From NCBI GenBank assembly GCA_963785055.1, contig CAWATT010000003.1, positions 252,157 through 316,156 on the forward strand: DNA of 64,000 bases, written 5' to 3'. This document shows, piece by piece, positions 9,144 through 59,574 of this stretch (its first letter is position 1; each line of letters starts with the position of its first letter). Below the pieces are notes generated by a model. The model worked only from the letters and a program-made list of their open reading frames with translations. It had not been told where the DNA came from and did not search any database. The translations under genes and the position numbers were made by a program. The stretch comes from an uncultured Pseudomonadota bacterium (GTDB taxonomy: Bacteria; Pseudomonadota; Gammaproteobacteria; Steroidobacterales; Steroidobacteraceae).

Positions 9144-10222
9144 ATGAGAGCAGTGCTGGTCCCCGTGGTCCTCCTGGCGCTCGCCCCCGTGGCAACCGCG
9201 CAGCAGCCATCGTCCGCATTTGATCGCGGTCGCAGCCTTCAAGCCTGGCAGGATCCTGGCTATGCGGCGCTGACGGCGCGCTGCAAGGTGCCGCCCCCGC
9301 CGCGCGCCACTGGTGGCGGTACGGCACCGGCCGCGACGGCCGCGGCACCACCGGCCCCGGCTCTGCCTGCGCCCGATGCGATCGCGGGTGTGATCGCCCC
9401 TGGACAACATTGGAAAGTCGTCTGGTCCTGGGAGGGCAACAACGCGGATGGCCCGATTGCCGGTGACGACGGTTCGCTGCTGTTCGCGAACAACGATGCG
9501 AGCAACGTGATGCGGCTCGATCCGGCGACGCGGGCTCGCCAGCGTGCTGTTCGACAACACGAACACCGGTGGCGCGGTGTCCCGAAGCAAGGATGGCGCG
9601 CTGTTCCTCGCAGTGCGCGGATTGGGCGGCGGCATCGAGCAGCTCGAGCCGCGGCGACGCATGTTCGCGAATACCTTCCAGGGCGAACCTCTCGAGTGCG
9701 CCGGGGGCACCGTGAACGATCTCGTCGCGGACGCCCGCGGCGGCGTCTATCTCTCGGTATCCGGGAGTGGTGTGTTCCACGCCAGTCCGGCCGGCAAACT
9801 GACGAAGTATGGCGACGTCCCTGCGGCCAACGGCATCATCCTGAGCCCGGACGAACGCACGCTCTACGCCACGAACGGTGGCGTGGTGGTGGCCTTTGAC
9901 GTGCAGGCGGACGGTTCGCTGGCGAACCAGCGCGAGTTCGGCAGGTTGCGGGGAGGTCAGGGAGGAGACGGCGCCGCAGTGGACGCCGAGGGCCGTGTGT
10001 ATGTCGCCACGGGAGCCTCTGCCGACGTTTTCTCGCCCGGCTGGCGAATTCCTGGGTTCCATAGCCGGGCCTCGCGGGCTGCATGGCGTCGCGTTCGGCG
10101 GCAAGGACAAGAAGACGCTGTACGGCATCGTGTTCTATGGCGGCTGGGGAACGCCCAGCGCACGCAACCAGATCGTCGCGATTCCCATGCTGGCGCAGGG
10201 CTACCTGGATCGGGCGAAGTAG
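9144..10222 (+). pseudogene. SMP-30/gluconolactonase/LRE-family protein, two frame changes (about 9535 and 10035)
   Basis: The ATG at 9144 (AGGAG upstream) gives MRAVLVPVVLLALAPVATAQ (signal peptide). Later pieces are GPIAGDDGSLLFANNDASNVMRLDP, DLVADARGGVYLS...ANGIILSPDERTLYATNGG...GGDGAAVDAEGRVYVAT, and LHGVAFGGKDKKTLYGI in the third frame, ending at 10222. Confidence 0.75.
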
Positions 10223-10275
10223 CGCCCGGCACGACTACGGGGTTTGCAATCGTCAATACTGGTGGCGAGGCCTGA

Positions 10276-10704
10276 TCACTCTCGTCGGCCCGGCTCATTC
10301 CGCAGCGGGCTGCCGATTCCGCAGTACACGAAATAACCAATGGTGAACACCACAACCGATAGATCCACCGCAAACGGAAGCCAGAAACCAGCGACGAACG
10401 GTTGCCTCGCGTTGAAGAGCACGAGCCATACCATGAACGCCTTCTCGAGAAGGCTGTAGAGGCCGATCGGGACGCGCCACGCGGGGAATATCGCCGCACC
10501 CATCATGAACAGGCCCATGAGCCCGACCATGATTCCCCAATGCTGGATGATGATCGTGTATTCGACCAGGAAGGGAAGTTTCGCGATGGTGGACGTGGCC
10601 CAGGAGGGGAAGAACGCGAAGATCCCTATGAGTGCTGTTCCCGCGCCGGTCAGCAGGTAGAAGGGCCGGAAGGCCCGGGAAAAAAAGCGCTCGAGATCTG
10701 GCAT
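10276..10704 (-). CDS. hypothetical 4-TM membrane protein
   Basis: Intact 142-aa ORF with four hydrophobic segments (LLTGAGTALIGIFAFF, WGIMVGLMGLFMMGAAIF, AFMVWLVLF, AVDLSVVVFTIGYFVY). I recognise no family. Confidence 0.6.
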   Translation of the reverse strand: MPDLERFFSRAFRPFYLLTGAGTALIGIFAFFPSWATSTIAKLPFLVEYTIIIQHWGIMVGLMGLFMMGAAIFPAWRVPIGLYSLLEKAFMVWLVLFNARQPFVAGFWLPFAVDLSVVVFTIGYFVYCGIGSPLRNEPGRRE

Positions 10705-10797
10705 GTTGAAGCGGCTCCTGAGGCAGTGCGGATGGACCTGGCTCGCCGGCTTGGCCGGCGGCGGCAGTCTATTGTTCGCCGGAATCTGGCTGGGCGA

Positions 10798-11942
10798 TCA
10801 GTAGGAAGAGTGACTGGCCTGTTTGCCGCGCGCAATCGCGGCAGGGAAAGCCGAAGCGTGCTCACTGTTCGACGTGACCCGATCGTCCCCGATGGCGGCA
10901 GCATTTTTACGCACGACATAAAGGCCGAGGCCGAGGTTGCGCCGGCCCTCGGGAGTCCGTGTCGGAGTAGTCGACCGTCCGCTCGCACCAGCGGGATCAA
11001 GATGGGTCAGCATGCGGGCGGGGATGGTCTTGCCGATGTTTTCGACCGCGAGCCTGATTCCTCCCGGCGTCGCCGTCCAGGCTGCCGTGAATGACGGAAT
11101 CAGGTGATCGTACATCATTGCGTTGAGATGCCAGGTTCGACGAGCGCCTGGTGGAATTGCGGCGCATCCCATTCCCCTTCGGTGTCCCCCTGTACCGCAA
11201 GCTCCAGCACGTGCCCCCTGCTGATGGCCTCGATTTCCGTCAGCGCGTCACGGACGAACTTTTCCAGCTGCAGGGGGTGCCGGACTGATGGCGAGTCCGG
11301 TTCCGAGGCGATTGCGCGTGTATTCGACCAGGTCATCCAGCAGCGCCCTCATCTGCGCGACGCTGCGCAAGACGATGGCAGCCTGGCGACCGTCGGACCG
11401 GGATTTCTGCTCGAGGCGAGCGCAGCTGGCAATCGTGCTCAACGGTCCGCGCAGGTCATGTCCCATCATGCCGAGGAACAGGTCACGCGTCTTGTCCATC
11501 TCTGCCAGGAACACACTCAGGGACTCGGCGGTCGCCTGATCAACTGCCTCGTTGAAGCGGATCACGTCTTCCAGGTCTTCGGCGCCAGCCATCGGAGAGG
11601 CCGCGCCCCACAGGCGCAGGACCGTCGCGCGCAGCGCGCGATACTCGGCCACCATCTGTTCCACTTCGAATCCCTGCCGTTCGCGCTGGCGGGCATGACT
11701 GCGCGAGGGAGCATCGGTGGCAGAAGAGGCGGTGGAACTGTTGCCTTCGGACTTCGCCTGCCGTTCCTCGTCGTCCTGCGGCCGATCCATGTCTGCAGCG
11801 ATTTCCTGCAGGATCAGCTTCCCGTGGTCCCGCAGGGCGCGCTCGTCCAGGCCGGAAGCCGCCGGCAGCTGCTGGCGGGCAAAGTCCACCCAGTCGGCCA
11901 GGATCGGTTCGAGGTTCTGTTTGATGAAGCTGAAAGGCGCAT
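10798..11942 (-). pseudogene. soluble sensor histidine kinase, about 3 frame changes
   Basis: HisKA H-box LFLGMMGHDLRGPLSTI lies in ORF 11248..11889. HATPase_c pieces are IRLAVENIGKTIPARML and LGLGLYVV in ORF 10798..11172. The N-terminal sensory part reads FIKQNLEPILADWVDFARQQLPAASGLDERALRDH. No TM segment is seen. The start near 11942 is uncertain. Confidence 0.8.
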
Positions 11943-45307: not shown

Positions 45308-45897
45308 TGAGGCCTCGCAGGGTCCTGATAATCGACGGTCACCCGGATGCCGGGGCGGAACGCTATATCCACGCCCTGGTCGCAGCCTATCGCGAAGGTG
45401 CGGAGTCTGCAGGGCACCAAGTGCGACTCGTGCACGTCGCATCCCTGGTCGTGCCTTCGCTGCGCAGCAATGCCGAGTTCCAGTCGGGCGAGCCGCCGCC
45501 AGCAGTGCGCGGGGTCCAGGCCGACCTGAAGTGGGCCGATCACCTCGTGCTGCTGTTTCCGCTGTGGCTCGGTGACATGCCGGGACAGCTCAAGGTGCTG
45601 CTTGAACAGGTGCTTCGTCCTGGCTTCGCGTTCGCCGCTGCACGCGGCAAGGGCTTTCCACGCAAGCTGCTCACCGGTCGCTCGGCGCGCGTCATTGTCA
45701 CGATGGGCATGCCCGCGTTCTTCTACCGCTGGTACTTCCGCGCCCACAGCGTGAAGAACCTCGAACGCAACATCCTGGGCTTCTGCGGGTTCGCGCCGGT
45801 GCGCACGACCATCGTCGGCATGGTCGAGGGCATCGGCGACGCGGGCCGCAAGGGCTGGATCGCCAAAGTCGAGGCGCTGGGAAGAGAGGCGCGCTGA
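45304..45897 (+). CDS. flavodoxin-fold NAD(P)H (quinone) oxidoreductase (Flavodoxin_2 / KefF-MdaB-like)
   Basis: [35 protein letters not shown]...[27 protein letters not shown]. The GTG at 45304 or the ATG at 45307 overlaps the upstream stop. Confidence 0.8.
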
Positions 45898-47268
45898 TGG
45901 CCCTGCGACTGGGCTTCTACGGTGCAGCCGGCACGGTCACGGGTTCCCGCTACCTGCTGGAGACGGGGTCACGCCGCCTGCTCGTCGACTGCGGGCTGTT
46001 CCAGGGCTACAAGCAGCTGCGCCTGCGCAACTGGGCGACCCCGCCGATCGACGCCGCGAGCGTCGACGCGGTGATCCTCACTCACGCCCACATCGATCAC
46101 AGCGGCTACCTGCCGCGCCTGGCCGTCGAGGGGTTTCGCGGACCGATCTATTGCTCGAGCGGCACCATGGAACTCTGCCGCATGCTGCTTCCGGACAGTG
46201 GCAGGCTTGCAGGAGGAGGACGCTCGCTTCGCGAACCGGCACGGGTTCTCGAAGCATCACCCGGCACTGCCGCTATACACGCAGGACGACGCCGAGGCCG
46301 TGCTGCGTCAGTTCAAGCCGGTCAAGGCGCACACGCAGTTCAACCCGGTTCCGGGTGTCACCGCGGAGCTGCGCTATGCGGGCCACATTCTCGGCGCGAC
46401 CTTTGTGCGTGTGCTGGCGGAAGGCGTCTCGGTCACGTTCAGCGGCGATATCGGGCGACCGGACGATCCGGTGATGAACCCGGCCGAGGCTCCGGCTCCC
46501 ACCGACTACCTGGTCACGGAGTCCACGTATGGGGATCGCAGCCACCCGGTCATCGATGCCGAGGAAGAGCTGGGCCGATGGCTGAACAAGGCCTGTGCGC
46601 GCGGCGGCGTCACGGTAATTCCCGGCTTTGCCGTTGGTCGCGTGCAGGCGTTGCTGTGGCAGATCGCGCAGCTCAAGGAACGCAGGCAGATCCCGGATGT
46701 GCCGGTGTACGTCGACAGCCCGATGGCCACCGACGCCACGAAGCTGTACGAGCAGTTCCACCGGGCTCATCGGCTCGATGCCGGGCAGGCGCGGCGCATG
46801 GGCGCGGTCGCCCGCTTCATCAACAGCCCCGACGAATCGAAAGCCCTCGACGCGCAGAAGGGACCGATGATCATCATCTCGGCCGCGGGAATGGCGACCG
46901 GGGGCAGGGTGCTGCATCACCTGAAGGTGTTTGTTGGCGACGAACGCAACCTGGTGCTGTTTGCCGGTTTCCAGGCGCCAGGTACGCGCGGCGCCCTCAT
47001 GGTGGGAGGCGCCCGGTCCGTGCGAATCCACGGCCAGGAATTTCCGATCCGCGCCGAGGTGGCCCGGCTTGAGGCCTCCTCCGCGCATGCCGATGCCGAT
47101 GAACTGCTCGCGTGGATGCAGCAGCTTCCACAGCCGCCAAGGCATGTGTATGTGACGCACGGCGAACCCGGCGCGAGCGACGCGCTGCGCGCCCGGATCG
47201 ACCACGAGCTGCGATGGAACGCCAGCGTTCCCGAATACCGCGAAGTCGTGACGCTCGACCGGGCGTAA
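45897..47268 (+). CDS. beta-CASP metallo-beta-lactamase-fold nuclease (RNA-metabolising MBL), one frame change near 46200
   Basis: The ATG overlaps the upstream TGA (TGATG). Motifs are [49 protein letters not shown] and [16 protein letters not shown]. The body is in ORF 46198..47268. Confidence 0.88.
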
Positions 47269-47290
47269 GCCCGGGCAGGGCCGCTTCCGC

Positions 47291-48125
47291 ATGGCACCGG
47301 CAGGCCGTCGCCACAACGGTCATTCGGCGCCTGCTGCTGCTCACACTGGAAGAAGCGCGCGAGCAACCCGGATCAGGCAATCCCGACACGGATGCAATCC
47401 ATCAGCTGCGCCGAAGCATCAAGCGGGCTCGCGCGCTGATCCTGCTGTTGCGCGGCGCCGTGGCGCGTGGGGCCACCGATGCCATGGGCGAGGAGCTTGC
47501 GGACATAGCCCGCCCCTGGGGGGTTCTCAGGGATGCGCAGGTTTCCAGGCAGCTGCTGGCGGAACTACTTGGGCCTGCTGCCATCGGACCAACGCCACGG
47601 GGATCGACTGCGCCGCGCGTGCAACTCTGCAGGCGCACCCGGCGCCGGTTGGCAGATTGCCGTTCCGAGGTTGAGGGCTGGAGCGTCACGCCAGGGGACT
47701 GGGAGGTAGTCGGCAAAGCGCTCAGGCGAGCCTGGCGACGGGCGCAAAGCGTATTGCCGTCGGACATTGCCGGCGCGACACCCCAGGCTCTGCACCGCTG
47801 GCGACGCAGGGTGAAGGTGTTGCAGAACGAGCTGCTCGTGCTCACGCCGCTGCACGACGAGGCCGTGCTGCGCCTGCTGCGCGATCTGGATCGCCTTGGG
47901 GACCTGCTCGGTCGTGAGCATGATCTGGCCGTGCTCGCTGCAGGCTTCCGGCGCGGCGAAGTCCGGCCGGCACCGGCAGTATCGCGTCGGTCGCTGTTCT
48001 CGGCGATACGCAACGAGCGCCGCCTGCTGAGGGCTTCGATTGAGCAGCTCGGCGTACCGCTGTTTGCCCAGTCCGGACAGCATTTCGAGCGTCGCCTGCA
48101 CCGCCGGTGGCGCGACGCCCGTTAG
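47291..48125 (+). CDS. CHAD-domain protein, start region frame-shifted or uncertain
   Basis: ORF 47112..48125 carries AIHQLRRSIKRARALILLLRG...ALHRWRRRVKVLQNELLVL...LLRDLDRLGDLLGREHDLAVL, the repeated conserved-His helices of CHAD. The ATG at 47291 is in another frame. Confidence 0.7.
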
Positions 48126-49249
48126 GCAGTGAACTCCGGTCTCAGGCGCTGGATATATCCAGCCCCAGTCCCGGTCGACCGGCGAGTCCGTCTCACCGCC
48201 ATATCGATTACCCCGCCGGCACCGAACATCAGCGGTGGGTTGACCACATCATGCGTCAGCAGGTGTGTTCCAAAGGCTCCTTCCTGCGCGTAAACCACGC
48301 CGCCAGCAGCACTGACGACTGTCAGGGCGGCACGGGTCAGGACGCTCGTCTCGCCTGCGTGTGCGCCCACGATGACGCCGAGTCCGCGTGCCATCGCAGC
48401 CCGGACCAGGCGAAGCGATCGCAGCAGGCCGCCCATCTTCGATACGCGGCAATTCACAAGCCAGCGGTCCGGGTCTGATGGAATCCGGTTGAGCTGGCCG
48501 ACGCGCGAGATGCTCTCGTCGAGGATGATCCTGGTGCCGAGCGACTCGGCGACGGCCTGGAGACCCTCGAAATCTCCCGGCTGAAGCGGCTCCTCCACCG
48601 CGGAAAATCGAAACTGGAGCGACTCCATATCCCTCAGGCAGGCTTCATGGTTGCGCCAGATGTTGTTGGCATCAGCGCGCACGGCGTCTCCGCCAAGGCC
48701 GGACGCGAGAAGCACGCGGACCTTCGCCTCGTTCTCCATCCGGTCTGGAGAGAGCTTGATCTTGAAGGTGCGGAACCCCGCCTGCAGGAACCTTTCGAGC
48801 TGGGCAGCGAACTGCGCTGTTGATCCGTCCCCGAGGACTGCCGTGTACTGGAAGCGACCGGCGAGCTCGGGTACGTCCAGCAGGCTCTCCACCGGGCATC
48901 GCTGCCTCCTCCCCAGCATATCGAGCAGTGCAAGTTCGACGGCGGTCCAGGCGGCCGGGTAAACGTCGATCAGCGCCTCGTTGGCTTCAACCCATTTCCT
49001 GAGTGACTGAAGATCATGGATATCCGCGAGCCACTCCGCCCGATGCCGGTCGACGAACGCCAGCGACGTACCCAGGCTTTCCGCGGTCACATACTCCCGC
49101 GGACACCCCTCGCCGAACCCTGTCTCACCGCCTGCTGCGCGCGCCCGCACCCAGAGGGACTGGGTCGAATGGCGCTCCGCCGCGGCATGCTTGAATGCTT
49201 CCTTGAAGGGGATCGCGAGCTCCGATGCCTCGATGCTCTCGAGGATCAT
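48122..49249 (-). CDS. enolase-superfamily enzyme, MLE subgroup (N-acyl-amino-acid racemase / dipeptide epimerase / OSBS-like)
   Basis: Intact 375 aa with the KxK motif FRTFKIKL, metal ligands in VRADANN, AVEEPL and IILDES, and the second catalytic Lys in CRVSKMGG. Confidence 0.88.
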   Translation of the reverse strand: MILESIEASELAIPFKEAFKHAAAERHSTQSLWVRARAAGGETGFGEGCPREYVTAESLGTSLAFVDRHRAEWLADIHDLQSLRKWVEANEALIDVYPAAWTAVELALLDMLGRRQRCPVESLLDVPELAGRFQYTAVLGDGSTAQFAAQLERFLQAGFRTFKIKLSPDRMENEAKVRVLLASGLGGDAVRADANNIWRNHEACLRDMESLQFRFSAVEEPLQPGDFEGLQAVAESLGTRIILDESISRVGQLNRIPSDPDRWLVNCRVSKMGGLLRSLRLVRAAMARGLGVIVGAHAGETSVLTRAALTVVSAAGGVVYAQEGAFGTHLLTHDVVNPPLMFGAGGVIDMAVRRTRRSTGTGAGYIQRLRPEFTA

Positions 49250-50943
49250 GACCCTGACCGTTCGACGAGAGTGCCCAGGTCGAAGCCGAAGTTCTTGCGG
49301 TAGGCCAGTGCAACGGTCTTGAACTGCCCCTCTCGCTGGCCCAGCTCCACACAGTGACGCTTGTAGATCTCCCCGGCATCGCGGTTGAGCCAGTGGACGA
49401 CCACGCCTTCCAGTCGCTGACTTTCGCGCTTGCCCTTGTACTCCATGTTCAGGTCCGCGAGCCTGCCATCCACCGCGAGCGCCACCTCACGCTGGTCAGG
49501 CCTCGCCTTGCCGTCGAGCTCGAGATACAGGCAATAGCGCCGTTCAGTCTCGTCGGCCAGCATCATCACGAATCGTCCTGTGACGCCGTACAGCTCCAGC
49601 GAGGAACGCACGGCCGCCAGCACCTGGGACTCGTAGAGCTTCTCGCCGGTCATGCTTGTGACGCCTTTGCCCTTCTGGACGAAGCGCAGGAGTGGCGTTT
49701 GATGCAGGCGTCCCACGACCCGCACCAGGTCGTTGATGAAGTAGCGATACAGTCCCGAGGGCGTCGTGACGATCACGTAGTACTCGAGACCCTTGCGCAA
49801 CTGCTCCAGCGTCAGGAATACCGGTTCAGCGCGATCCCAGAGGTCCCGTTCCACGAACTCGAAGAAGTGCGTTTCAAGGGTCGGAATTCCGGTGCCGGAA
49901 CGGCGGCCGAGCGTGATCGTGCCGCGGAACTCGCTGGCGATGTAGCCGATGTCGATGATTCGTGCACGAGGGGGCAGTTCACCCCGCAGGGCATCCAGGG
50001 CAAAGCCCGAGCTGCCGAATGTCCAGGTCCCGACCAGGCGCAGCTTCGGCCAGAGGTCGGCAATCCGGGTCTCGACTCCGGTGGATTGCACGCGATCGAG
50101 TTCGTCGGCGCGGGACGCGTCAGCCGTAAGCCGCCCGGCCACTGCCTCGCTGATCCCTGCAGGCAGGTCCAGTTCGCGAAAGAAGCCGCCGCGCCTGACA
50201 TCGTCGATCAGGGCTTCATGATGCTGCCGGAATAGCCGGACCAGGGTCAGTATCGTGACGGGGTTGGCGGTTGCAATGTAGGTCAGGTCGGCGCGCGACA
50301 GGGCCAACCTCAGGATCAGAAGGTACTTCAGCTGGCAGTCCTTGATGGTCAGGACAATCGGCGGCACAACGAACTTGTTCCGGACGATGCGGGGCGTGCT
50401 GCCGGCCACGAAGCCAGAAGCCGATCCAAAGGGTCGGCCGTTGGCAAGCACGCCCTCCAGGGGTGGGCTGACGATGGCCAGCATGGCGCCGGAGAACGCC
50501 TCGGGACACTGTCGATGCTGAAAGGCGATGGCAGTCTCCTGGATGTCGCGCAGCGACTTCAGGTGTGACGCCGTAAGCGGCAGGTCTTTCGGTTGGTCAG
50601 TCGTCCCGCTGGTCCGCACATAGCAGAGCGGCATCTCCGCCGTCAGGGCCGCTTCTCCCAGTTCGATCTCCGCGGCAACGTAGGGTCGTAGCTGCTCGAA
50701 AGTGCTGACTGGAACGCGGGAGGCGAATTCCCCGTAGCTGGAGATCGAGTCGAAACCGTGCTGGCGGCCGAACGTCGTGTGCCGGTTCGCGGCAAGGATC
50801 CGCAGCAGCAGGCGTCGCTGGGCATGCATCGGCGCCCTGGAAACGCGTGCGAGTCGAACCCCGCTCATCGCCCTCACGGCGCGCAGCTTCAGCTCGAGCG
50901 CTGCATTGGCGAACCAGTCCGTGACGACAGCCGGGGTGGACAT
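49246..50943 (-). CDS. GH3-family acyl-acid amido synthetase (adenylate-forming)
   Basis: Within ORF 49246..50985, the start is MSTPAVV at 50943. LLLRILAANRHTTFGRQHGFDSISSYGEFASRVPVSTFEQLRPYV and the adenylation motif YVRTSGTTDQPKDLPLT are present. Its stop overlaps the enolase gene start (ATGA). Confidence 0.88.
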   Translation of the reverse strand: MSTPAVVTDWFANAALELKLRAVRAMSGVRLARVSRAPMHAQRRLLLRILAANRHTTFGRQHGFDSISSYGEFASRVPVSTFEQLRPYVAAEIELGEAALTAEMPLCYVRTSGTTDQPKDLPLTASHLKSLRDIQETAIAFQHRQCPEAFSGAMLAIVSPPLEGVLANGRPFGSASGFVAGSTPRIVRNKFVVPPIVLTIKDCQLKYLLILRLALSRADLTYIATANPVTILTLVRLFRQHHEALIDDVRRGGFFRELDLPAGISEAVAGRLTADASRADELDRVQSTGVETRIADLWPKLRLVGTWTFGSSGFALDALRGELPPRARIIDIGYIASEFRGTITLGRRSGTGIPTLETHFFEFVERDLWDRAEPVFLTLEQLRKGLEYYVIVTTPSGLYRYFINDLVRVVGRLHQTPLLRFVQKGKGVTSMTGEKLYESQVLAAVRSSLELYGVTGRFVMMLADETERRYCLYLELDGKARPDQREVALAVDGRLADLNMEYKGKRESQRLEGVVVHWLNRDAGEIYKRHCVELGQREGQFKTVALAYRKNFGFDLGTLVERSGS

Positions 50944-50947
50944 GGGG

Positions 50948-51793
50948 TTACCTGAACGGCGCACGCATCTGCCGCAGGAAGCCACGGGGGTAGGCGCGGT
51001 CCATTACGCCGAGGTCCTTGACCGACTCGTGTTGCGGCAGATACCAGGTGCCGAATACCAGGTCCCAGACAATCGTCGTGTTGCTGAAGTTGCAGGCCGC
51101 GACCTGCGGATCGCGCGCATGGTGCCAGCGATGCGTCTCCGCGCTGCCAACCACGTAATTGAGCCAGCCGTACCGAAGCCGAAGGTTGCTGTGCTGGAAG
51201 AAGCCATTGACGGAGTAGAGCAGGAAGTAGCCTGCGATCACCCGCGGGTCGACCCCCAGCATCAGGAACGGCACCGTATCCACCGCAAAGTGCAGCATCT
51301 TCTCCAGCGGATGAAAGCGCCCGACGTTGAGCACGTAGAGGATGTCCGGCGAGTGGTGCACCGCGTGCAGCCGCCAGAGAGCGGGAAATCGATGGCATGC
51401 GCGGTGCAGCCAGTAGCGAAGGAAGTCCACGATCAGGACCATCACCACTGTCTGCACCATCAGCGGCCAGCCATGCGGCCAGAATCCCGCGGCCGTGTGG
51501 GCGTGCGTCCATGAGGACAGCAACAACACCGTCACGAGGAGCAGCATGCGCGGCAGCGCCACCTGGACCAGCGCGAGAAATGCGGCGTCGGCCCTGACGT
51601 CGGCCGCCTGCGGCCGCCAGAGAAGCCGCTCCGGAAATCGACGCTCCAGCGCGAGCAGCGCCACGCCTGCAAGGAAAACGGGCGCGTAGGTCGCCAATGC
51701 CATCGGGGCACCTGCTTCGAGCAGCAACCCGAAGCCCACAACGGCAAGGACCATGGTCGCCGGATACCAGGTGCGCGCAAGGATCGTTGTCAT
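50948..51793 (-). CDS. fatty-acid-hydroxylase/sterol-desaturase-family membrane di-iron oxygenase
   Basis: Three His boxes: WLHRACHRF, LHAVHHSPD and THRWHHARD, with multiple TM segments. An alternative start is at 51850. It ends 4 nt before the GH3 start. Confidence 0.88.
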   Translation of the reverse strand: MTTILARTWYPATMVLAVVGFGLLLEAGAPMALATYAPVFLAGVALLALERRFPERLLWRPQAADVRADAAFLALVQVALPRMLLLVTVLLLSSWTHAHTAAGFWPHGWPLMVQTVVMVLIVDFLRYWLHRACHRFPALWRLHAVHHSPDILYVLNVGRFHPLEKMLHFAVDTVPFLMLGVDPRVIAGYFLLYSVNGFFQHSNLRLRYGWLNYVVGSAETHRWHHARDPQVAACNFSNTTIVWDLVFGTWYLPQHESVKDLGVMDRAYPRGFLRQMRAPFR

Positions 51794-51859
51794 CCTTCGT
51801 CCCGGACGTAGCGGCGTTTGGTGCGCAGTCTGGAGGCTGGGTCCCTGCATCGGCTGCGC

Positions 51860-54800
51860 TCACGCGTCGATGGACCGCAGCAGTTGCTGCGTCTGCGGTG
51901 ATGGCTCGGACTGCAGGCTCACGCGCAGCGTCTCGCGGCAGCGCTGATATACATCGAGGGCCTCGGCCTTGTGGCCGTGTCGCAGATGCAGGCTCATCAG
52001 CTGGCGGTAGAGGCTCTCCGACAGCGGATCAATCTCGATACCGTGATGGAGAAGCCTTGTGGCGTCCTCGGGTCCGGCTCCGCGCTCCAGTGCCTGCGCC
52101 GCCGAGCCGATGAAATGGATCACGCGTGCATGGAGCTGCTGTCGCGGGGCCGCGACCCATGCAAGGTCGAGATCCTGCTGGAGCAGCGGACCACGGTAGA
52201 GCCGCATCACCCGATCCGTGGCCCGCAGCAACGCCTCGTGGGTTACCGCGCCGGGACCCGTCGTCGTCGCCGCCGGCTGGGTCAACTGTCGCCACTGGCC
52301 CAGCGCCTCATCCAGGGCCCACAGGTCCAGCCAGAAGCGGCTCGCGTCGAGACTGAGCATTCCGGATTGCAGCGTGATGGCGCTGTCGTCTCCAAGCAGC
52401 TTGCGCAGCCGGTGCAGCGTCGTCGTCAGGGAGCGTTGTGCATAGTCGCTGTCGATGCGCGGCCACATGGCGTCCGCTATCCGGGCAAGTGGAACCTGCT
52501 GGCCGTTCAGGCAGGCGATGGCCTTCAGCAGTTCCAGGGCGCGGCTCTGGGTGCGTGCACCCGGTGCGGCGTCCTCCCGGGATGTGGACTCCAGCGAGAA
52601 GTGACCCAGCACCCGGATTTTCCAGATCCACGGCCAGATTTCGAGGCGACATGATGGCGGATCGGGTGTCAGGTTGCGGCTCCTGACCAGGCTCGCCACG
52701 TAGGCCGTCTCGATCTTCCTCTCCAGTGCAAAGGCACAGAGACGTGCAAGTTGCTCCGGCAGCCAGAACATCGCGAAACTGAAGCCACGCTCCCGCCCCA
52801 GTGCAAGCGCTTCACGCAGCTTGATCTCGGCAGCGTCGTCATCGCCCTGTTCACGCGCGAGCTGCGCCAGGGCGAGCAGGGAGAGGAAATCGAACAGTCG
52901 GCTACGTATGGGCTGCCCGATCCGCTGCACCCTTGCGATCTGCTCCTGGGCGGCCTTGAGCTCGCCGATCGCCATCTGTGCCTGTGCCAGGGCAAGGCCG
53001 GCCAGTGCCTGGAAGAAGGGCGCCCCAAGTTGCTCCGCCAGTTGCGTTGCTTCCCGGGCATGCTCGTGCGCCCGCCAGCGGTCGCCACGTAGCAGGGCAT
53101 CCCACCCGAGGAAGTATTGCTGCATGCAGGCGCCGAACCGGCGCGGATCGGCCTCTGAAGCTGCCGCGCGCCGCAGCAGTTCTGCAGACGTGTCCCGATC
53201 TCCAGCGGCCAGCGAAGCGCCGGCCCCGTAGAGCATGAGCGTGCTGCGCCACAGGCTCACGCCGGCCCGCTCCGCCATGTCGAGGCCGTCATAGACCGCC
53301 TCGAGGCAAAGGTCCTGTCGGCCCTGCAACATGTGGAACATCGACTCCAGCTGCCGCAAGGTCACGAGTGCGACGGCCGGGACGGAGCGTTCTTCCGCCA
53401 GCGCGCGCAGCGACTCGATCAGCGTGGAAGCCCGCGCGAACCGCCCGGTCCAGATGAGGACCGTCACGACATAGAGTCCTGCAGTCATGCGCACACGCGG
53501 ATCGAAACCTTCCTGCATCAGCGCGAGGGTCCGCTCGCCCCATTCGTAAAGGTCCGGATGCTGCGGCTGCCGCAGGATCATCGCCATGAAGAGACTCTGC
53601 GTGACGCGTGCTTCAATTTCCGGGCTGGACCAGCCGCAGCTTGCGATGAGCTGTTCGGCCTCGGCGATCCAGCGATCCAGCGGGTGCAGGTCGTTGGGAT
53701 CGTGGACCAGCACGTCCATCAGTCCGGCAAGCGCGAGGAACGCCCCGGTGTTGCCGCTGTTACCCGACTGGGCGCGAAAGCCGCGGTAGCTGCGCTCGAA
53801 CTGCAGTGTCGCCTCCGCCGGCGCGCTCGCGAACCTCGCATTGGCCACCCAGTAGGCTAGCCACGGATCGGAGTCGCGAACCTCCGGGGACATGGCCTCG
53901 ACCCAGCGTACCAGCGTCTCGCCGCGGCCCTGTGACAGCAGCTGTTCGGCATGCTGCAGTGTCAGGTTCTTCAATGCCGGCCAGTCCTGGCCCTCCATCA
54001 GGAGTTGTGCAGCGGCATCGACCTGCCCAAGCTCCAGCAGCAGTTGGGCCGCACGCCCGCGCGCCTGCCGCAGGTCAGCCACGCTGTATACCTCGCGCGC
54101 CTTGCGCAACAGGAATTCCCGGGCCAGCGGATGCAGCTGGTAGAACAGCTCGTCGCCAGTCGGCATCGGAATCAGCAGGTAGGCATAGGGCTGCAGCCCG
54201 TCGAGCAGTGCCGCGACATCCACATCCGGACACAGGCGTTGCGCCAGGGCGGTGCTGAACTGCGGCAGCATCGCGATGCTCAGCAACAGGTCGCGGGTCG
54301 GCGTATCGAGCTGGCGGAAGATCTCCTCGCCGAAGTAGTCGAACGCCAGCGCCGGGGAGGGATTCAGCACTCCCGGATCAGTCAGCGCCCGACGATCGGA
54401 CAGCAGCATCGCCAGCGCCACCACCCACCCCTGGGTCCGACGATAGAGCGTCTCCAATGCCCCTTCGTCGAACTGCAGGCCGCGCAGCGCGATGATCCCG
54501 TCCTGTTCCTCGCGCGTCAGCTGCAACTCATCCCAGTCCACGACCACAAGCCGGTCGTTGGCGCGGTACCTGGCCAGCGCCGCTGGGGGGCCGGAGCGCC
54601 CCACGACGAACACGCAACCGCCTGTCGGCACCTCGCTCAAGGCAGCCTGCAGCAGTGTCTTGAGCGCGGAGGCTTCCGCGCCATCCTGGAAGTTGTCCAG
54701 CACGATCGCGAATGGCGCGCGCAGCCGGTTACAGAGATCGCGCAGGTAGCGCCGCGTGAATCCCTCCAGGTCCGCGAGGTTCTCCGGTGCCAGCAGCGGC

Positions 54801-55093
54801 AGTGGATCACCCTTCGCGCCGCGCTGCTGGATGGCCTGGCTTACGAAATAGAAGAATGTGGCGGGATCCGCATCGCTGCTGTCCACCTGGTACCAGATCG
54901 TGTCCATTGGCCTGTGGGACAGGTAGTCGGCGACCAGCGTCGTCTTTCCTGATCCAGGGGGACCCGCGATCCAGACCATCGGACGGGAGACGGCGCTGTC
55001 GAGAAGATCGAACAGTCGCGACCGGGCGAGCGCGTTGACCGGAACAGGTCTCGCCGTCTTTGCATACTGAACTTGCATGCTGGTGCCCGTCAT
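51860..55093 (-). CDS. large STAND-type transcriptional regulator: MalT-like P-loop NTPase + TPR-like helical array + C-terminal SARP (winged helix + BTAD)
   Basis: Intact 1077 aa. The N-terminus reads ALARSRLFDLLDSAVSRPMVWIAGPPGSGKTTLVADYL (Walker A) ...FAIVLDNFQD (Walker B-like). The C-terminus reads KIRVLGHFSLE...ALELLKAIACL...LTTTLHRLRKLLG...RFWLDLW...YRGPLLQ...LYRQLMSLHLRHGHKAEALDVYQRCRETL. Confidence 0.85.
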   Translation of the reverse strand: MTGTSMQVQYAKTARPVPVNALARSRLFDLLDSAVSRPMVWIAGPPGSGKTTLVADYLSHRPMDTIWYQVDSSDADPATFFYFVSQAIQQRGAKGDPLPLLAPENLADLEGFTRRYLRDLCNRLRAPFAIVLDNFQDGAEASALKTLLQAALSEVPTGGCVFVVGRSGPPAALARYRANDRLVVVDWDELQLTREEQDGIIALRGLQFDEGALETLYRRTQGWVVALAMLLSDRRALTDPGVLNPSPALAFDYFGEEIFRQLDTPTRDLLLSIAMLPQFSTALAQRLCPDVDVAALLDGLQPYAYLLIPMPTGDELFYQLHPLAREFLLRKAREVYSVADLRQARGRAAQLLLELGQVDAAAQLLMEGQDWPALKNLTLQHAEQLLSQGRGETLVRWVEAMSPEVRDSDPWLAYWVANARFASAPAEATLQFERSYRGFRAQSGNSGNTGAFLALAGLMDVLVHDPNDLHPLDRWIAEAEQLIASCGWSSPEIEARVTQSLFMAMILRQPQHPDLYEWGERTLALMQEGFDPRVRMTAGLYVVTVLIWTGRFARASTLIESLRALAEERSVPAVALVTLRQLESMFHMLQGRQDLCLEAVYDGLDMAERAGVSLWRSTLMLYGAGASLAAGDRDTSAELLRRAAASEADPRRFGACMQQYFLGWDALLRGDRWRAHEHAREATQLAEQLGAPFFQALAGLALAQAQMAIGELKAAQEQIARVQRIGQPIRSRLFDFLSLLALAQLAREQGDDDAAEIKLREALALGRERGFSFAMFWLPEQLARLCAFALERKIETAYVASLVRSRNLTPDPPSCRLEIWPWIWKIRVLGHFSLESTSREDAAPGARTQSRALELLKAIACLNGQQVPLARIADAMWPRIDSDYAQRSLTTTLHRLRKLLGDDSAITLQSGMLSLDASRFWLDLWALDEALGQWRQLTQPAATTTGPGAVTHEALLRATDRVMRLYRGPLLQQDLDLAWVAAPRQQLHARVIHFIGSAAQALERGAGPEDATRLLHHGIEIDPLSESLYRQLMSLHLRHGHKAEALDVYQRCRETLRVSLQSEPSPQTQQLLRSIDA

Positions 55094-55095
55094 GT

Positions 55096-55713
55096 TCAGA
55101 AACGGAACCTGAAGCCCAGGTTCAGGCTGCTCGAACTCCAGTCGCTCCCTTCCGCCACTATCGGCTGGTACTCAAGGTCGAACGCGACCCTCGGGCTCAC
55201 GATCCAGCTGACCCCGACTCCATAGGAGAATGAACCGCTGGAATCGGAAGCCGAGACCTCCCCGTAGACGTCCTCGGCACTGACCTCGAGAGTTGCCTGT
55301 GAGTAACCAACCAGTGCATACAGATCCCAGTTCTCTGCTATCGGAAGATAGGCCTGTGCGAACACTCCGTATACGCTGGCAAGCCTGAGGTCGACTTCCG
55401 GGGGTCCCAGGTCGATGTCGAAATCGATGTCGAAGTCTTCCGAGAGGTCCAGGACCGCGTCCGAGCTGGCGCCGGCGCGCACACCAACAGCAAGATAACG
55501 ACTGAAACGCCAGCCACCCTGGACAAAGACATAACCCAGGTCCTGCGAGCGCATGCCTGTCGATTCCAGGCTCAGGCTCCCTATTCCCGCTCCCGCGAAC
55601 CAGCCGGTGCGATTCTCCTCCGTGGAAGTCGGCATACCGCCCGCGGCCTGGGCCGCAAGTGGCAGGCATGCGGAAGTCGCAAGGGCAATGACCGAACGGC
55701 TAATGGCATTCAT
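55096..55713 (-). CDS. small outer-membrane beta-barrel protein
   Basis: The start is MNAISRSVIALATSACLPLAAQA (signal peptide). Amphipathic strands alternate through the body, and the terminal motif is LNLGFRFRF*. It ends 2 nt before the regulator start. Confidence 0.7.
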   Translation of the reverse strand: MNAISRSVIALATSACLPLAAQAAGGMPTSTEENRTGWFAGAGIGSLSLESTGMRSQDLGYVFVQGGWRFSRYLAVGVRAGASSDAVLDLSEDFDIDFDIDLGPPEVDLRLASVYGVFAQAYLPIAENWDLYALVGYSQATLEVSAEDVYGEVSASDSSGSFSYGVGVSWIVSPRVAFDLEYQPIVAEGSDWSSSSLNLGFRFRF

Positions 55714-55805
55714 ACTTGTTCTCCCCTGTATTGTTTCGGGCAAGGGGAAGTATTCGCGCCAGGGGCTTACCGGCCGCCCAGCGCCGGGTTACAGATGACT
55801 TACTC

Positions 55806-57348
55806 ATGAACCGCAAACCACTGTTCCTCCTTCTCGTCCTGCTGGCGGCCTGTGGGAGTGGAAGCCTGGGTGAGCCTGTGGAGCCCCCGCTCCCGCCAGG
55901 GCCACCGGTCAGCGGTCCGGCGTGGCCGGCATTCGGCGGCAATTCACAGCACACGGCACTTGCCAGCACGGCCGCCCAACCGTTGGGTCGCATCCTCTGG
56001 CGCACTCCCGTCGACCTGGCGCCGCAGTACGGGGGCGGCGGCAGCTACCTGCTCACGCACTACGGCTCGCCGGTAATTTCTTCCCGCAACACGGTCCTTG
56101 TCCCGGTCAAGACCGCGGCCAACGGCTCGTTTCGCTTCGAGGCCCGCAACGGTTCCAATGGCGCCTTGCTCTGGAGCGCAACCAGCGACTACGTCGTGCC
56201 TCCGCACAACTGGTTTCCGAGTTTCAATCTGACCCTTGCGCAGACGGGCCGCGTCTATGCGCCAGGGATGGGCGGAAAGCTCTACTTCCGCGATGACGTC
56301 GATTCGGCCACGGGTAGCGTCCAGACCGTCGTGTTCTATGGCGCAGCCGTCTATGCCGCATCGAAGAGCCAGTTGGATGCTGCCGTCACAATCAGTACGC
56401 CGGTGACCGCCGATGCGGCAGGCAACGTGTTCTTCGGCTTCATCGCCACCCAGCCGAACCCGGCCGGCCTCAGCAGCGGAATCGCCCGAATCTCGGCAAA
56501 TGGCACCGGCACCTGGGCTGCGGCCAGCGTGATTTCAAATGATGCCGGAATCGATCGTCTCGCCATGAACAGCGCGCCCGCGCTGTCCGCGGACGGCGCC
56601 TTTGTGTACGTCGCGGTCAGCAACGCGCAGGGAAACGGCTATCTGCTGCGCCTGAACAGCACGACGCTGGAGCGCACCGCAAGCGTCAGCCTGCTGGATC
56701 CGCGAACGGGCACGCCTGCCCTGGTCTCCAGTGACGCCACGTCCTCGCCCACGGTTGGCCCCGATGGGGATGTGTATTTCGGCGTTCTGGAAGCCAACCG
56801 GCCGTCACACAACTATCGCGGATGGCTGCTGCACTTCGACGCCGAGTTGGGTCAGACGAAGATTCCGGGCGGGTTCGGCTGGGATATCACGGCCTCGACC
56901 ATTCCGGCCTGCGGCGGTGCCTTCCTACACGGGCACTTCTTCCTACCTGATCGTGACCAAGTACAACAATTATGGCGGCGCGGGCAGCGGCGATGGCCAG
57001 AATCGCATGGCCGTGCTGGATCCCACCCGCTCACAGCCAGACCGGATTTCCGGGAATCCGACCATGCTGGAGGTCATGACGATACTTTCGCCGACACCCG
57101 ATCCCGGTTACGCCGGCGGCGTGAAGGAATGGTGCGTCAACACCGCTGTTGTCGATCCCGTTACGCGGTCTGTTCTCGTCAACAACGAGGATGGCCAGAT
57201 GTATCGCTGGAATCTCGTGACCAACACGCTGTCCGAGCAGATCCGCTTCACCAACGGATTGGGCGAATCCTACACGCCCACGGCGCTTGGCCCGGATGGC
57301 GTGATCTACGCCATCAACAACGCGATGCTGTTCGCGGTGGGAAGCTGA
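55806..57348 (+). CDS. beta-propeller (PQQ-like/BamB-like repeat) lipoprotein, one frame change near 56925
   Basis: MNRKPLFLLLVLLAACGSG (lipobox). WPAFGGNSQHT and repeated G..Y / DG.L.W propeller-like strands follow. The C-terminal part is in ORF 56731..57348 (..GPDGVIYAINNAMLFAVGS*). Confidence 0.6.
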
Positions 57349-57377
57349 GAACGGTCGCCCAGGACCTGCTCCTAGCC

Positions 57378-58214
57378 GTGACCAGCACATTCGAAAAGCC
57401 CGAGCGCGCAGACTGGACAATCGACCAGGGATGGGACCACTACACGACGGCCCAGCACGCCGTCTGGAAGGTGCTTTTCGAACGGCAACTGGAAGTGTTG
57501 CGGGGTCGCGCCTGCAGCGAATTCATCGCCGGTATGCGGTCTCTGCCCATCGGCGCCGACCGGATTCCAGACTTTCGTCGACTGAGCGACGCCTTGATGA
57601 AAGCAACCGGCTGGGAGGTGGTTGCGGTACCCGGGTTGGTGCCCGACGAGGTGTTTTTCGAGCACCTTGCGAATCGCCGCTTCCCGGCCGGCAATTTCAT
57701 TCGTGGCGCCGACGAATTGGAATACCTGGAAGAGCCGGACGTCTTTCACGACGTCTTCGGCCACGTGCCGATGCTGATGCATCCCGTGATCGCCGACTAT
57801 ATCCAGGCCTATGGGCAGGGTGGACTGCGAGCGCAGCGTCTTGGCAACCTGGCCCAGCTGGCGCGCGTCTACTGGTACACGGTCGAGTTCGGGCTCGTCC
57901 AGCAGGCCGACGGGTTGCGGATCTACGGCTCCGGCATCGCGTCATCATCATCCGAGAGCGTATTTGCCATCGACGATCCATCCCCGAACCGCATTCGCTT
58001 CAACCTGGACCGTGTCATGCGGACGCTGTACCGCATCGATGCGTTCCAGGAGACCTATTTCGTCATCCGCGATCTCGAAGAGCTGCTGGACCTGGCGCAG
58101 GTGGATTTCGCGCCGGTCTATGAGCGTATTGCAGGACTGTCGGAAATCGCCCCGGGCGAGCTGCTGCCAACCGACGTCCTGATCAGTCGCGGCACTGGCC
58201 GGTATCACCTGTAG
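57378..58214 (+). CDS. phhA: phenylalanine 4-monooxygenase (pterin-dependent aromatic amino-acid hydroxylase)
   Basis: Proposed GTG start at 57378, inside the 832-aa read-through ORF 55716..58214. Motifs are YTTAQHAVWKVLFERQLEVLRGRACSEF, RIPDF, LEYLEEPDVFHDVFGHVPML (His ligands) and RVYWYTVEFGLV (Glu ligand). Confidence 0.92.
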   Translation: MTSTFEKPERADWTIDQGWDHYTTAQHAVWKVLFERQLEVLRGRACSEFIAGMRSLPIGADRIPDFRRLSDALMKATGWEVVAVPGLVPDEVFFEHLANRRFPAGNFIRGADELEYLEEPDVFHDVFGHVPMLMHPVIADYIQAYGQGGLRAQRLGNLAQLARVYWYTVEFGLVQQADGLRIYGSGIASSSSESVFAIDDPSPNRIRFNLDRVMRTLYRIDAFQETYFVIRDLEELLDLAQVDFAPVYERIAGLSEIAPGELLPTDVLISRGTGRYHL

Positions 58215-58330
58215 GACGCCTCCCACCGGTTTTCAGGACGGCGGCACGGCCAACTGCAGCCAGTGCCTGCTGATGCGCTCGCCATGCAACTGCTCCAATG
58301 CGTGCTCCACACGACGCACAAGGGACAGTC

Positions 58331-58717
58331 ATGAAACTTCAACTTCTTCTCGCCTCAGGCACTTGCCTGCTGCTGGGCGCATGTGCGACCCAGGACCTGC
58401 GCTCGACGGAAGCAATCGCTCGCGCCGAGAACAGCATCAGCCAGGCCGACCAGGCGGGCGCCCGCCGCTACGACCCCGCCGCGCTGGATTCGTCCAAGAA
58501 GAAACTGAACGATGCAAAGATCGCCGAGGACAAGGGAGAGCAGACGCAAGCCCTTTACCTTGCCCAGCAGGCAGAGCTGGAGGCCGAGATGGCCACCGCC
58601 AAGGGTCGCACGGCCGAGGCCAACAAGGCTGCGGAAGAGGTGCGCGCCAGCACCGAGGCGCTGCGAACTGAAAGCGCGCGCGAGCGGCCCCAGTCAACAG
58701 CCGGAACGGGAGAATGA
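58331..58717 (+). CDS. DUF4398-family lipoprotein
   Basis: MKLQLLLASGTCLLLGACATQ (lipobox), followed by a helical Ala/Glu/Lys-rich body (AIARAENSISQADQAGARRYDPAALDSSKKKLNDA). Confidence 0.7.
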   Translation: MKLQLLLASGTCLLLGACATQDLRSTEAIARAENSISQADQAGARRYDPAALDSSKKKLNDAKIAEDKGEQTQALYLAQQAELEAEMATAKGRTAEANKAAEEVRASTEALRTESARERPQSTAGTGE

Positions 58718-59574
58718 TGATGAACAAGCAACAACTGCCTGCCGCGATCGCGCTTGCCGTTTCGCTGGCCATTGCCGCCGGCTGTGCCTCGGCACCGAAG
58801 ACTTATCCGGAACTCGAGGCGGCGCGCGCAGAAGTCCGACAAGTGACTTCCGAGCCCCTGGCCCAGGAAGCCGCCGGCATCCGCCTCAAGCAAGCCAACG
58901 AGGCCCTGCTGCGCGCGGACGAGGCTGTGCGCACTGGCGAGTCGCGGGAGCAGATCCAGCAGGACTCGCTGCTGGCGATGCAAAATGCCCAGATCGCCAA
59001 GGAACAGGTTGCAGAGATGAAGGCCCGCAAGGCGGTGGAAGCGGGCGAGGCAGCTCGCAACCAGGTATTGCTCGATGCCCGCGAGAAGGATGTGCGTACC
59101 GCCCAGCTTGAGGCTGACAAGGCCAAACAGCAGGTCGCATCCGCAAATGACCGGGCCTCGGACGCCGCGGATGCCACCGCCCGAATGCGGGCTGAGCTGG
59201 AAGCGCTCCAGGCAAAGCAGACCGATCGCGGCATGGTGCTGACGCTGGGAGACGTGCTGTTCGCAACTGGCCAGGCGACCTTGCAGCCCGGGGCCATGCG
59301 GGTCATCGATCAGCTGACATCCTTCCTGGACAAGTATCCTGACGCGACCATTTCGGTCGAGGGTCATACGGACAGCATGGGTAGCGATGACTACAACCTG
59401 GCCCTGTCGCAGCAGCGGGCAGATGCGGTCCGGTCCGCCGTTACCGCGAAGGGCATTGATGCGCGACGCGTAACGACCCGCGGCCTCGGAGAGTCCCTTC
59501 CGGTCGCGTCGAACACGGACGCTTCGGGAAGGCAGCAGAACCGTCGGGTGGAGATCGTATTCGGCAATAGCTGA
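58714..59574 (+). CDS. OmpA-family lipoprotein with N-terminal DUF4398-like helical region
   Basis: Lipobox IAAGCAS. The C-terminal OmpA_C domain reads LTLGDVLFATGQATLQPGAMRVIDQLTSFLDKYPDATISVEGHTDSMGSDDYNLALSQQRADAV...NRRVEIVF. Its start overlaps the upstream stop. Confidence 0.9.
   Translation: MMMNKQQLPAAIALAVSLAIAAGCASAPKTYPELEAARAEVRQVTSEPLAQEAAGIRLKQANEALLRADEAVRTGESREQIQQDSLLAMQNAQIAKEQVAEMKARKAVEAGEAARNQVLLDAREKDVRTAQLEADKAKQQVASANDRASDAADATARMRAELEALQAKQTDRGMVLTLGDVLFATGQATLQPGAMRVIDQLTSFLDKYPDATISVEGHTDSMGSDDYNLALSQQRADAVRSAVTAKGIDARRVTTRGLGESLPVASNTDASGRQQNRRVEIVFGNS

Follow-up and report, generated by a model that had tools for sequence, protein, structure and literature searches.

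A conserved hydroxylase–GH3–enolase-superfamily gene cassette of uncultured bacteria with a possible role in lipoamino acid synthesis

A run of five genes in an uncultured member of the Steroidobacteraceae raises two questions: which of the genes belong together, and what their products might make. The window, a stretch of 64,000 nucleotides from contig CAWATT010000003.1 (GenBank assembly GCA_963785055.1), contains a run of five co-directional minus-strand open reading frames (ORFs) that spans 48122–55743. They would encode, in the direction of transcription, a small outer-membrane beta-barrel protein (OMP), a STAND-type regulator, a membrane hydroxylase, a GH3-family acyl-acid amido synthetase and an enzyme of the MLE subgroup of the enolase superfamily (hereafter the enolase member). 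A sequence-only reading had taken all five as an intact cluster for a candidate undescribed N-acyl amino acid pathway. As developed below, three of the five form a conserved cassette, and we see roughly even chances that this cassette makes and tailors a lipoamino acid (a fatty-acyl amino acid with modifications) at the inner membrane, in a pathway related to that of the GH3-dependent ornithine lipids.

An ORF check confirmed the five ORFs and their tight junctions as they had been described, and each of the five family assignments was backed by Pfam profiles. The motifs that had been quoted were also found, namely SGTTDQPK in GH3, FKIKL, DAN, EEP, DES and SKMGG in the enolase member, and the His boxes HRACH (residue 149), HAVHH (162) and HRWHH (240) in the hydroxylase. 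A gap of 2 nt separates the barrel stop (55096) from the regulator ATG (55093). After the regulator stop (51860) there are two possible hydroxylase ATGs, at distances of 9 nt (51850) and 66 nt (51793), and a further 4 nt separate the hydroxylase stop (50948) from the GH3 ATG (50943). The GH3 and enolase reading frames overlap as ATGA at 49246–49249, which suggests translational coupling of these two genes. The G+C content of the five ORFs (0.64–0.66) is the same as that of the remainder of the window. A scan of positions 47800–56200 for consensus sigma-70 promoters and terminators gave no signal above chance and is uninformative on co-transcription.

The first question was addressed with two neighbourhood scans, in which neighbours were counted from tblastn matches. 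The GH3-anchored scan covered one genome per GTDB species and returned 42 loci, where the five window proteins were used as queries. The order hydroxylase–GH3–enolase was found in approximately 38 of the 42, and essentially every locus with at least 50% GH3 identity had the same order and orientation, contig permitting. The carriers were Steroidobacteraceae, Burkholderiales, Rhodocyclales, Methylomirabilota, Gemmatimonadota and other metagenome-assembled genomes (MAGs). The nearest named relatives of the window were Steroidobacteraceae MAGs, with locus L001 the closest. The enolase-anchored scan was made in JGI metagenomes and gave more than 550 matching stretches; the best 80 were analysed, with counts taken among informative loci. 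GH3 was directly upstream of the enolase gene in 69/69 loci and the hydroxylase upstream of GH3 in 45/45, while a membrane protein of approximately 150 aa was encoded upstream of the hydroxylase in 35/40. A CocE/NonD hydrolase gene was found downstream in 13/44 and a gene for a divergent HTH_26 regulator in 9/32. The STAND regulator and the barrel were found in 0/80 of these loci and in 0/42 of the GH3-anchored genome loci.

Altogether, the FA_hydroxylase, GH3 and enolase trio was adjacent in well over 100 environmental bacterial contigs. The five-gene arrangement was reproduced only by L043, which has the same upstream neighbours and an enolase member and regulator that are 86% and 95% identical to those of the window. 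The conserved unit is a three-gene core, FA_hydroxylase–GH3–enolase, with four genes in most genomes, and it replaces the five-gene unit proposed earlier, as the barrel and regulator recur only in this close relative. Lack of this adjacency of the three enzyme genes in related genomes had been set beforehand as a refuting outcome, and both scans showed the adjacency to be conserved.

The hydroxylase and GH3 frames were continuous in 69 of 86 evaluable loci, forming one protein of approximately 850 aa. Fused proteins of approximately 845–850 aa, containing PF04116 and three GH3 domains, are present in JGI, NCBI and ENA gene calls and made up the majority of the top 120 matches. The two genes are split in a minority clade, to which the window, L043, L001, L044, L012 and others belong. 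Because the frames are fused in so many of these loci, there is strong Rosetta-stone evidence for the prediction that the two activities act on one membrane-associated substrate.

A reading in which the five ORFs are mere neighbours without joint function, with the enolase member serving aromatic catabolism as a muconate cycloisomerase, is highly improbable. In its favour, TIGR02534, the model of the muconate/chloromuconate cycloisomerase subfamily, was the top NCBIfam match of the enolase member by E-value, and several PDB neighbours of this protein are cycloisomerases. However, that match scored 77 bits against a cut-off of 335, the trio was adjacent in every informative locus in several phyla, the hydroxylase and GH3 are usually fused, and no catA/catC-type or aromatic-catabolic neighbours were seen around the cassette in the window or in L043–L046. 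The muconate cycloisomerase assignment was rejected on this score and on the lack of catabolic neighbours, which leaves the enolase member outside the bona fide muconate cycloisomerases, a placement among which would have counted against the sequence-only reading. The claim of that reading that the three enzymes form a functional unit is upheld by this result together with the strongly conserved adjacency and a solid GH3 assignment.

The GH3 assignment was borne out by profile searches, with the N, M and C domains (PF03321, PF23571 and PF23572) scoring 172, 66 and 40 bits, respectively, against a cut-off of 23.6 each, and by a full-length match to plant JAR1 (5ech, E 1e-23). Nucleotide-binding motif 1 is conserved, TSGTTDQPK aligning with SSGTSQGRPK of JAR1. 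An identical GH3 protein (P0121) is encoded on a public contig of 322 kb. The sole NCBIfam match was to OlsH (NF052613), at 95 bits in two stretches against an equivalog cut-off of 620, and the fused protein of L045 matched both the OlsE and OlsH models, the latter at 105 bits. OlsH of Singulisphaera acidiphila is a GH3-like enzyme that produces N-acyl-ornithine from a free fatty acid with ATP and Mg2+; it works with the alpha/beta-hydrolase OlsI, its operon partner, and the S115A variant is inactive, making the Ser of motif 1 essential (PMC12493201, published in 2025). With that work, the earlier view of bacterial GH3 proteins as essentially uncharacterised is out of date; thousands of other homologues are described there as uncharacterised, and further amino acids are predicted as their substrates (PMC12493201).

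The window GH3 agrees with OlsH in its three domains and in nucleotide motif 1, and like OlsH it would be encoded in an operon with putative lipid-tailoring genes. The cassette differs in that it is without the OlsI O-acyltransferase and the OlsG methyltransferase, its partners being the OlsE-like hydroxylase and the enolase-superfamily enzyme, and in its taxonomic range, which comprises beta/gamma-Proteobacteria, Methylomirabilota and Gemmatimonadota MAGs whereas OlsH is planctomycete. The plant GH3 enzymes (JAR1, GH3.5/6/12/15) are homologous over the full length, and their two-step adenylation/amidation chemistry would presumably be shared by the bacterial protein. The plant enzymes are soluble and stand-alone and act on hormones, whereas the gene of the bacterial GH3 accompanies that of a membrane hydroxylase and the two are usually fused.

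The hydroxylase scored 103 bits with Pfam FA_hydroxylase (PF04116) against a cut-off of 31 and contains, besides the three His boxes, about four hydrophobic segments. Its sole NCBIfam match was OlsE (NF052566), at 157.8 bits against an equivalog cut-off of 475, in an alignment that is full length (residues 21–299 with model positions 3–283 of 293). No relative of a solved structure was found for it by sequence search. Like OlsE of Rhizobium tropici, the cassette hydroxylase is a membrane di-iron enzyme of the FA_hydroxylase family with three His boxes; it differs in being fused to the GH3 ligase in most genomes, and no such fusion has been described for OlsE. According to the passage of PMC12493201 that cites it, OlsE hydroxylates C4 of ornithine.

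The third core gene encodes the enolase member (Pfam MR_MLE_C, 87 bits; MR_MLE_N, 22.4 bits). Residues K163, K165, D193, E219/E220, D244 and K271 and the motif QEGAFG are invariant among 36 family members. The catalytic residues align with K160/K162, D191, E219, D244 and K268 of 1jpm, which we take to be the KxK at strand 2, the D/E/D metal ligands at strands 3–5 and the Lys at strand 6. When an AF2 model (pLDDT 91.8) was searched with Foldseek, the top matches were 2p88, which came first, 1jpm and 3jva, and the model was about equally far from 2p88, the Ala-Glu/dipeptide epimerases and the muconate cycloisomerases (20–25% identity, TM 0.8–0.87). It shares the fold (TM 0.80–0.85), the KxK, the D/E/D and the strand-6 Lys with 2p88, 1jpm/1tkk, 3jva and 3rit, but is 21–24% identical to them and misses all NCBIfam equivalog cut-offs widely. 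With the dipeptide and L-Ala-D/L-Glu epimerase models the scores were 45–47 bits (cut-offs 343–500), and the best score with the NSAR/OSBS menC-type models (cut-offs 130–288) was 77 bits against 200.

A profile built from the 36 family members was run against the PDB. The dipeptide epimerase 3jva was found at 9e-38, the N-succinyl-Arg/Lys racemase 2p88 at 4e-37 and the Ala-Glu epimerase 1jpm at 5e-32. Dipeptide, N-succinyl-amino-acid and Ala-Glu racemases had E-values of 1e-38 to 1e-25 and cycloisomerases 1e-22 or worse, a lead of 10–15 orders of magnitude for the N-acyl-amino-acid and dipeptide racemases. Where dipeptide epimerases have a DxD motif, which holds the free N-terminal ammonium, this family has the invariant Q322-E323-G324, and because of this replacement an N-acylated substrate would fit better than a dipeptide. 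The enolase member represents a distinct, uncharacterised family of the MLE subgroup whose nearest relatives act on N-acylated amino acids, and N-acyl-amino-acid racemase is its most likely activity. Known racemases and epimerases of the subgroup are encoded in contexts of peptidoglycan recycling or with a succinyl-transferase/hydrolase, in contrast to the GH3 and membrane hydroxylase found here.

With the same cassette and the same first two steps, the enolase member might instead be a beta-eliminating dehydratase or a cycloisomerase. The hydroxylase would then install a leaving group on the head group and the enolase member would abstract the alpha-proton and eliminate or cyclise, giving a dehydro- or a lactone/lactam-type lipoamino acid. 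We regard this as unlikely. The MLE subgroup does include dehydratases and cycloisomerases with the same KxK/K residues, weak NCBIfam matches to OSBS, cis-3-hydroxy-L-proline dehydratase and muconate cycloisomerase scored similarly to the racemase matches, and the obligatory pairing with a hydroxylase would supply a chemical reason for elimination. The family also has an invariant Glu, E323 of QEGAFG, at the end of strand 8, presumably the position of Glu327 of muconate cycloisomerase, the offset being an estimate from alignment without a structural test. Set against this is the profile, which puts racemases and epimerases far above cycloisomerases and OSBS. In addition, OlsE, the nearest characterised hydroxylase, acts at ornithine C4 and not beta to the carboxylate, as far as it is cited in PMC12493201.

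The claim that all five genes are frame-intact proved wrong for the enolase gene. The product read from the window matches database protein P0001 at 100% identity as far as residue ~352, beyond which the two sequences differ. The contig that encodes P0001 (L047) comes from an independent sequencing run and has 97.5% nucleotide identity to the window; over 2.4 kb the blastn alignment has just one gap, where the window carries an extra A (position 48193). The same insertion was seen against L043, an 89%-identical contig. The last 16 codons before the native stop (48142–48144) are thereby put out of frame, and in place of the family-conserved tail DGLAGRPGLGLDISSA the window ORF has 23 unrelated residues. 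In a three-frame translation the +1 frame recovered this tail followed by the native stop. The tail is conserved in P0001–P0013, where G360, G362 and L363 are invariant or nearly so. An exact database look-up of the window protein gave no match because the C-terminus is frameshifted; a look-up of the same kind with the GH3 protein gave none either. The extra A may be a true mutation or an assembly error.

Over the 11 kb shared with L043, two frame-breaking 1-nt insertions were found in the window, that in the enolase gene and one at 56909 in a neighbouring gene of 529 aa. The picture of an island of intact genes amid disrupted ones is weak, as one of the two falls inside the cluster, and for the same reason intactness amid pseudogenes was rejected as a sign of selection. 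There were also longer differences. The spacer between the OMP and regulator genes is 29 nt in L043 and 2 nt in the window, a deletion of 27 nt in the latter, and a 28-nt window-specific insertion between the two hydroxylase ATGs (51794–51850) creates the upstream in-frame ATG at 51850. The start at 51793 is more likely than that at 51850, because the alignments with homologues begin at residue ~20, the gene is called at 281 aa in L043 and the insertion lies between the ATGs.

From the observed gene order, domain identities, catalytic residues, conservation and fusion, we infer the substrates, the order of the steps and the reaction of the enolase member as follows. On the cytoplasmic side of the inner membrane, GH3 would adenylate a free carboxylic acid, for which a fatty acid is the most likely candidate. 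The acyl group would then be passed to the alpha-amino nitrogen of an amino acid, and the product would be an N-acyl amino acid, as it is for OlsH with ornithine. The OlsE-like di-iron hydroxylase, mostly the N-terminal membrane domain of the same polypeptide, would then hydroxylate the conjugate, probably on the head group. Finally, the translationally coupled MLE-subgroup enzyme would abstract the alpha-proton next to the head-group carboxylate; inversion at the alpha-carbon is the most likely outcome, as in an N-acyl-amino-acid racemase, and elimination of the new hydroxyl a less likely one. The sequence-only reading had likewise proposed conjugation of an acid to an amino acid, hydroxylation and inversion. 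These activities have gained indirect support from the fusion, the OlsE and OlsH matches and the racemase-ranked enolase profile, with the order of reactions and the enolase reaction standing as the conjectural part of that scheme.

Several points weigh against synthesis of a lipoamino acid by this route. Specificity for a fatty acid and for the head group is an extrapolation because the OlsH and OlsE matches are far below their equivalog cut-offs, and GH3 is roughly equidistant from OlsH and plant JAR1. No OlsI-like O-acyltransferase or alpha/beta-hydrolase was found in the 44–60 kb region of the window. The two catalytic lysines of the enolase member are common to the whole MLE subgroup and do not separate a racemase from a dehydratase or cycloisomerase, its identity to every solved structure is just 20–25%, and the window copy may be impaired by its extra base. 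The putative function of the cassette is drawn entirely from homology and context, and one distant context, in locus L042 (described below), would fit aromatic or unsaturated acids better than fatty acids.

That the acid is not a lipid at all seems distinctly unlikely. In that case an aromatic, phytohormone-like or xenobiotic acid could be conjugated, or a D-amino acid converted to the L form via transient ATP-dependent N-acylation, racemisation and hydrolysis, for which the succinyl-transferase/NSAR/hydrolase route of Geobacillus is an analogue. An amide or ester could be cleaved by the CocE/NonD hydrolase, whose gene comes after the enolase gene in L017, L032, L035 and L044 and in 13 of 44 informative metagenome loci, and plant GH3 enzymes act on jasmonate, auxins and benzoates (PMC12493201). 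In L042 (8240–16061), a Planctomycetota MAG, a distant GH3 gene (30% identity, with an N-terminal extension of ~200 aa) adjoins an enolase-superfamily gene (29%); an AMP-binding ligase and a UbiD-family decarboxylase follow and a short-chain dehydrogenase/reductase (SDR) is encoded upstream. This locus suggests that the GH3–enolase pairing predates the link to the hydroxylase. On the other hand, fusion of GH3 to an integral-membrane OlsE-like hydroxylase in most loci and the frequent presence of the small membrane protein point to a membrane-embedded lipidic substrate, no recurrent aromatic-catabolic genes were found around the cassette, and the hydrolase is missing from most loci and from the window.

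The remaining genes vary between lineages. The small membrane protein (~120–160 aa, hydrophobic, with motifs RVxGQAxQxW, FLPPFxAFQGSxLPY and WIPAxFHxVLA) is the usual fourth cassette gene product. It was found in 32 genome loci and is encoded directly upstream of the hydroxylase in L001, L003, L009, L010 (8623–9090), L013, L017, L027, L031, L035, L044, L045 and others, and no Pfam or NCBIfam family was matched. Neither this protein nor the HTH_26 regulator gave a match at E<0.1 when searched for in the window, and the small membrane protein is absent from L043 as well. The CocE/NonD (Peptidase_S15) hydrolase gene, directly 3' of the enolase gene in the four loci named above (in L044 at 10116–11879, with a 1-nt overlap), could supply an acyltransferase or hydrolase step in the genomes that carry it; it is absent from the window. 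The small membrane protein, this hydrolase (~30% of loci) and the differing regulators are variable accessories.

In the window, two other genes stand upstream of the cassette. The barrel (Pfam OMP_b-brl, PF13505, 76 bits against 28.7) has a signal-peptide-like N-terminus, MNAISRSVIALATSACLPLAAQA, and ends in FRF, and a GGGGAG Shine-Dalgarno-like motif lies 8–9 nt upstream of its ATG. It is conserved only in L043, at 86% identity. The regulator matched Pfam AAA_22 (33 bits against 27), AAA_16 and, weakly, TPR_MalT, with BTAD (62 bits) at residues 953–1075 and Trans_reg_C (18.2 bits against 26.2) at residues 849–904. The NCBIfam MalT model gave 154 bits over residues 16–422, below the equivalog cut-off of 537. 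L043 has a 95%-identical orthologue in the same position, for which WHD_MalT is recorded. With a predicted P-loop NTPase, winged helix and TPR sensor, the protein qualifies as a STAND/MalT-like NTPase. Its domain order is the reverse of that of AfsR-type large SARPs, the MalT-like NTPase and TPR coming first and the SARP-like module, with BTAD and a putative wHTH, being C-terminal. The regulator is better conserved between the window and L043 than the enzymes (~86%).

The barrel and regulator are lineage-specific accessories and not part of the conserved cassette. They lie directly upstream of it, with spacers too short for independent terminators, and may be co-transcribed with it. In this lineage the small membrane protein would have been lost and the cassette placed behind the barrel and the STAND/SARP-like regulator as local additions, which may supply outer-membrane passage and ligand-dependent activation.

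The coordinates of the features are collected in Table 1.

Table 1. Features of the cassette locus, with positions in the window
Feature	Coordinates	Strand	Remarks
Small outer-membrane beta-barrel protein	55096..55713	-	205 aa from ATG 55713; ORF reaches TTG 55743 (215 aa)
STAND-type regulator	51860..55093	-	1077 aa
OlsE-like FA_hydroxylase (core member)	50948..51793	-	281 aa from likely start; first ATG of ORF 51850 (300 aa)
GH3-family acyl-acid amido synthetase (core member)	49246..50943	-	565 aa; ORF to 50985 gives 579 aa
MLE-subgroup enolase-superfamily enzyme (core member)	48122..49249	-	ORF as read 375 aa, C-terminus frameshifted
Inserted base, A on coding strand	48193..48193	-	Frameshifts last 16 enolase codons; blastn against L047 and L043
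Divergent intergenic region, 92 nt	55714..55805	.	Separates OMP start from lipoprotein-like gene on the other strand; presumably holds the cluster promoter

Beyond the divergent intergenic region, an 832-aa ORF at 55716–58214 (plus strand) is an artefact of the 1-nt insertion at 56909. This insertion frameshifts the 529-aa lipoprotein-like gene, which is without a Pfam family, and the wrong frame runs into a phenylalanine-4-hydroxylase (Biopterin_H) gene; in L043 the two genes are separate and intact. A DUF4398 gene and then a DUF4398-OmpA gene (58298–59574, plus strand) lie beyond the phenylalanine hydroxylase gene. On the other side, a CHAD-domain gene (47112–48125, plus strand) converges on the enolase gene, its stop lying at the end of the frameshifted enolase ORF. 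The CHAD and DUF4398/DUF4398-OmpA arrangements are common to L043 or L047. A metallo-beta-lactamase/beta-CASP/RMMBL gene (45897–47268, plus strand) is split over the overlapping ORFs 45897–47072 and 46198–47268 by an apparent frameshift, in agreement with the earlier observation that many genes in the window are disrupted, whether by assembly errors or as true pseudogenes.

A literature search for a system combining GH3, an enolase-superfamily enzyme and a hydroxylase returned only the OlsH paper (PMC12493201) and a 2026 review (PMC12971839). Neither mentions an enolase, racemase or epimerase, and the beta/gamma-proteobacterial clade of the cassette is not among the sequences analysed in them. 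Bacterial GH3-dependent amino-lipid synthesis was shown only in 2025, for one planctomycete enzyme, and the role of the other homologues was posed as a question (PMC12493201). The known theme here is GH3-dependent amino-lipid synthesis; what is new is the enolase-superfamily partner and the fusion of hydroxylase and ligase. The cassette has gone unnoticed so far because all of the carriers seen are uncultured.

The cassette defines a large, coherent GH3 clade, which takes in dozens of MAG species and more than 550 stretches matched in metagenomes. Two partners of GH3 in this clade are unprecedented, namely the OlsE-like hydroxylase in its fused form and the enolase-superfamily enzyme, which is obligatory. 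The cassette predicts a new N-acyl amino acid, which may be hydroxylated and have the D configuration, and a new function for an orphan family of the MLE subgroup. More tentatively, and with the balance on the side of doubt, the products may be head-group-hydroxylated N-acyl D-amino acids, a hitherto unknown class of amino lipids or lipid signals, made by a membrane-anchored bifunctional OlsE-like/GH3 protein together with the first enolase-superfamily enzyme dedicated to epimerising a lipid head group. Such a pathway would be widespread among uncultured Proteobacteria, Methylomirabilota and Gemmatimonadota of soil and groundwater. A natural bifunctional synthase/hydroxylase of this kind could help to make biosurfactant-type lipoamino acids without CoA or acyl carrier protein (ACP).

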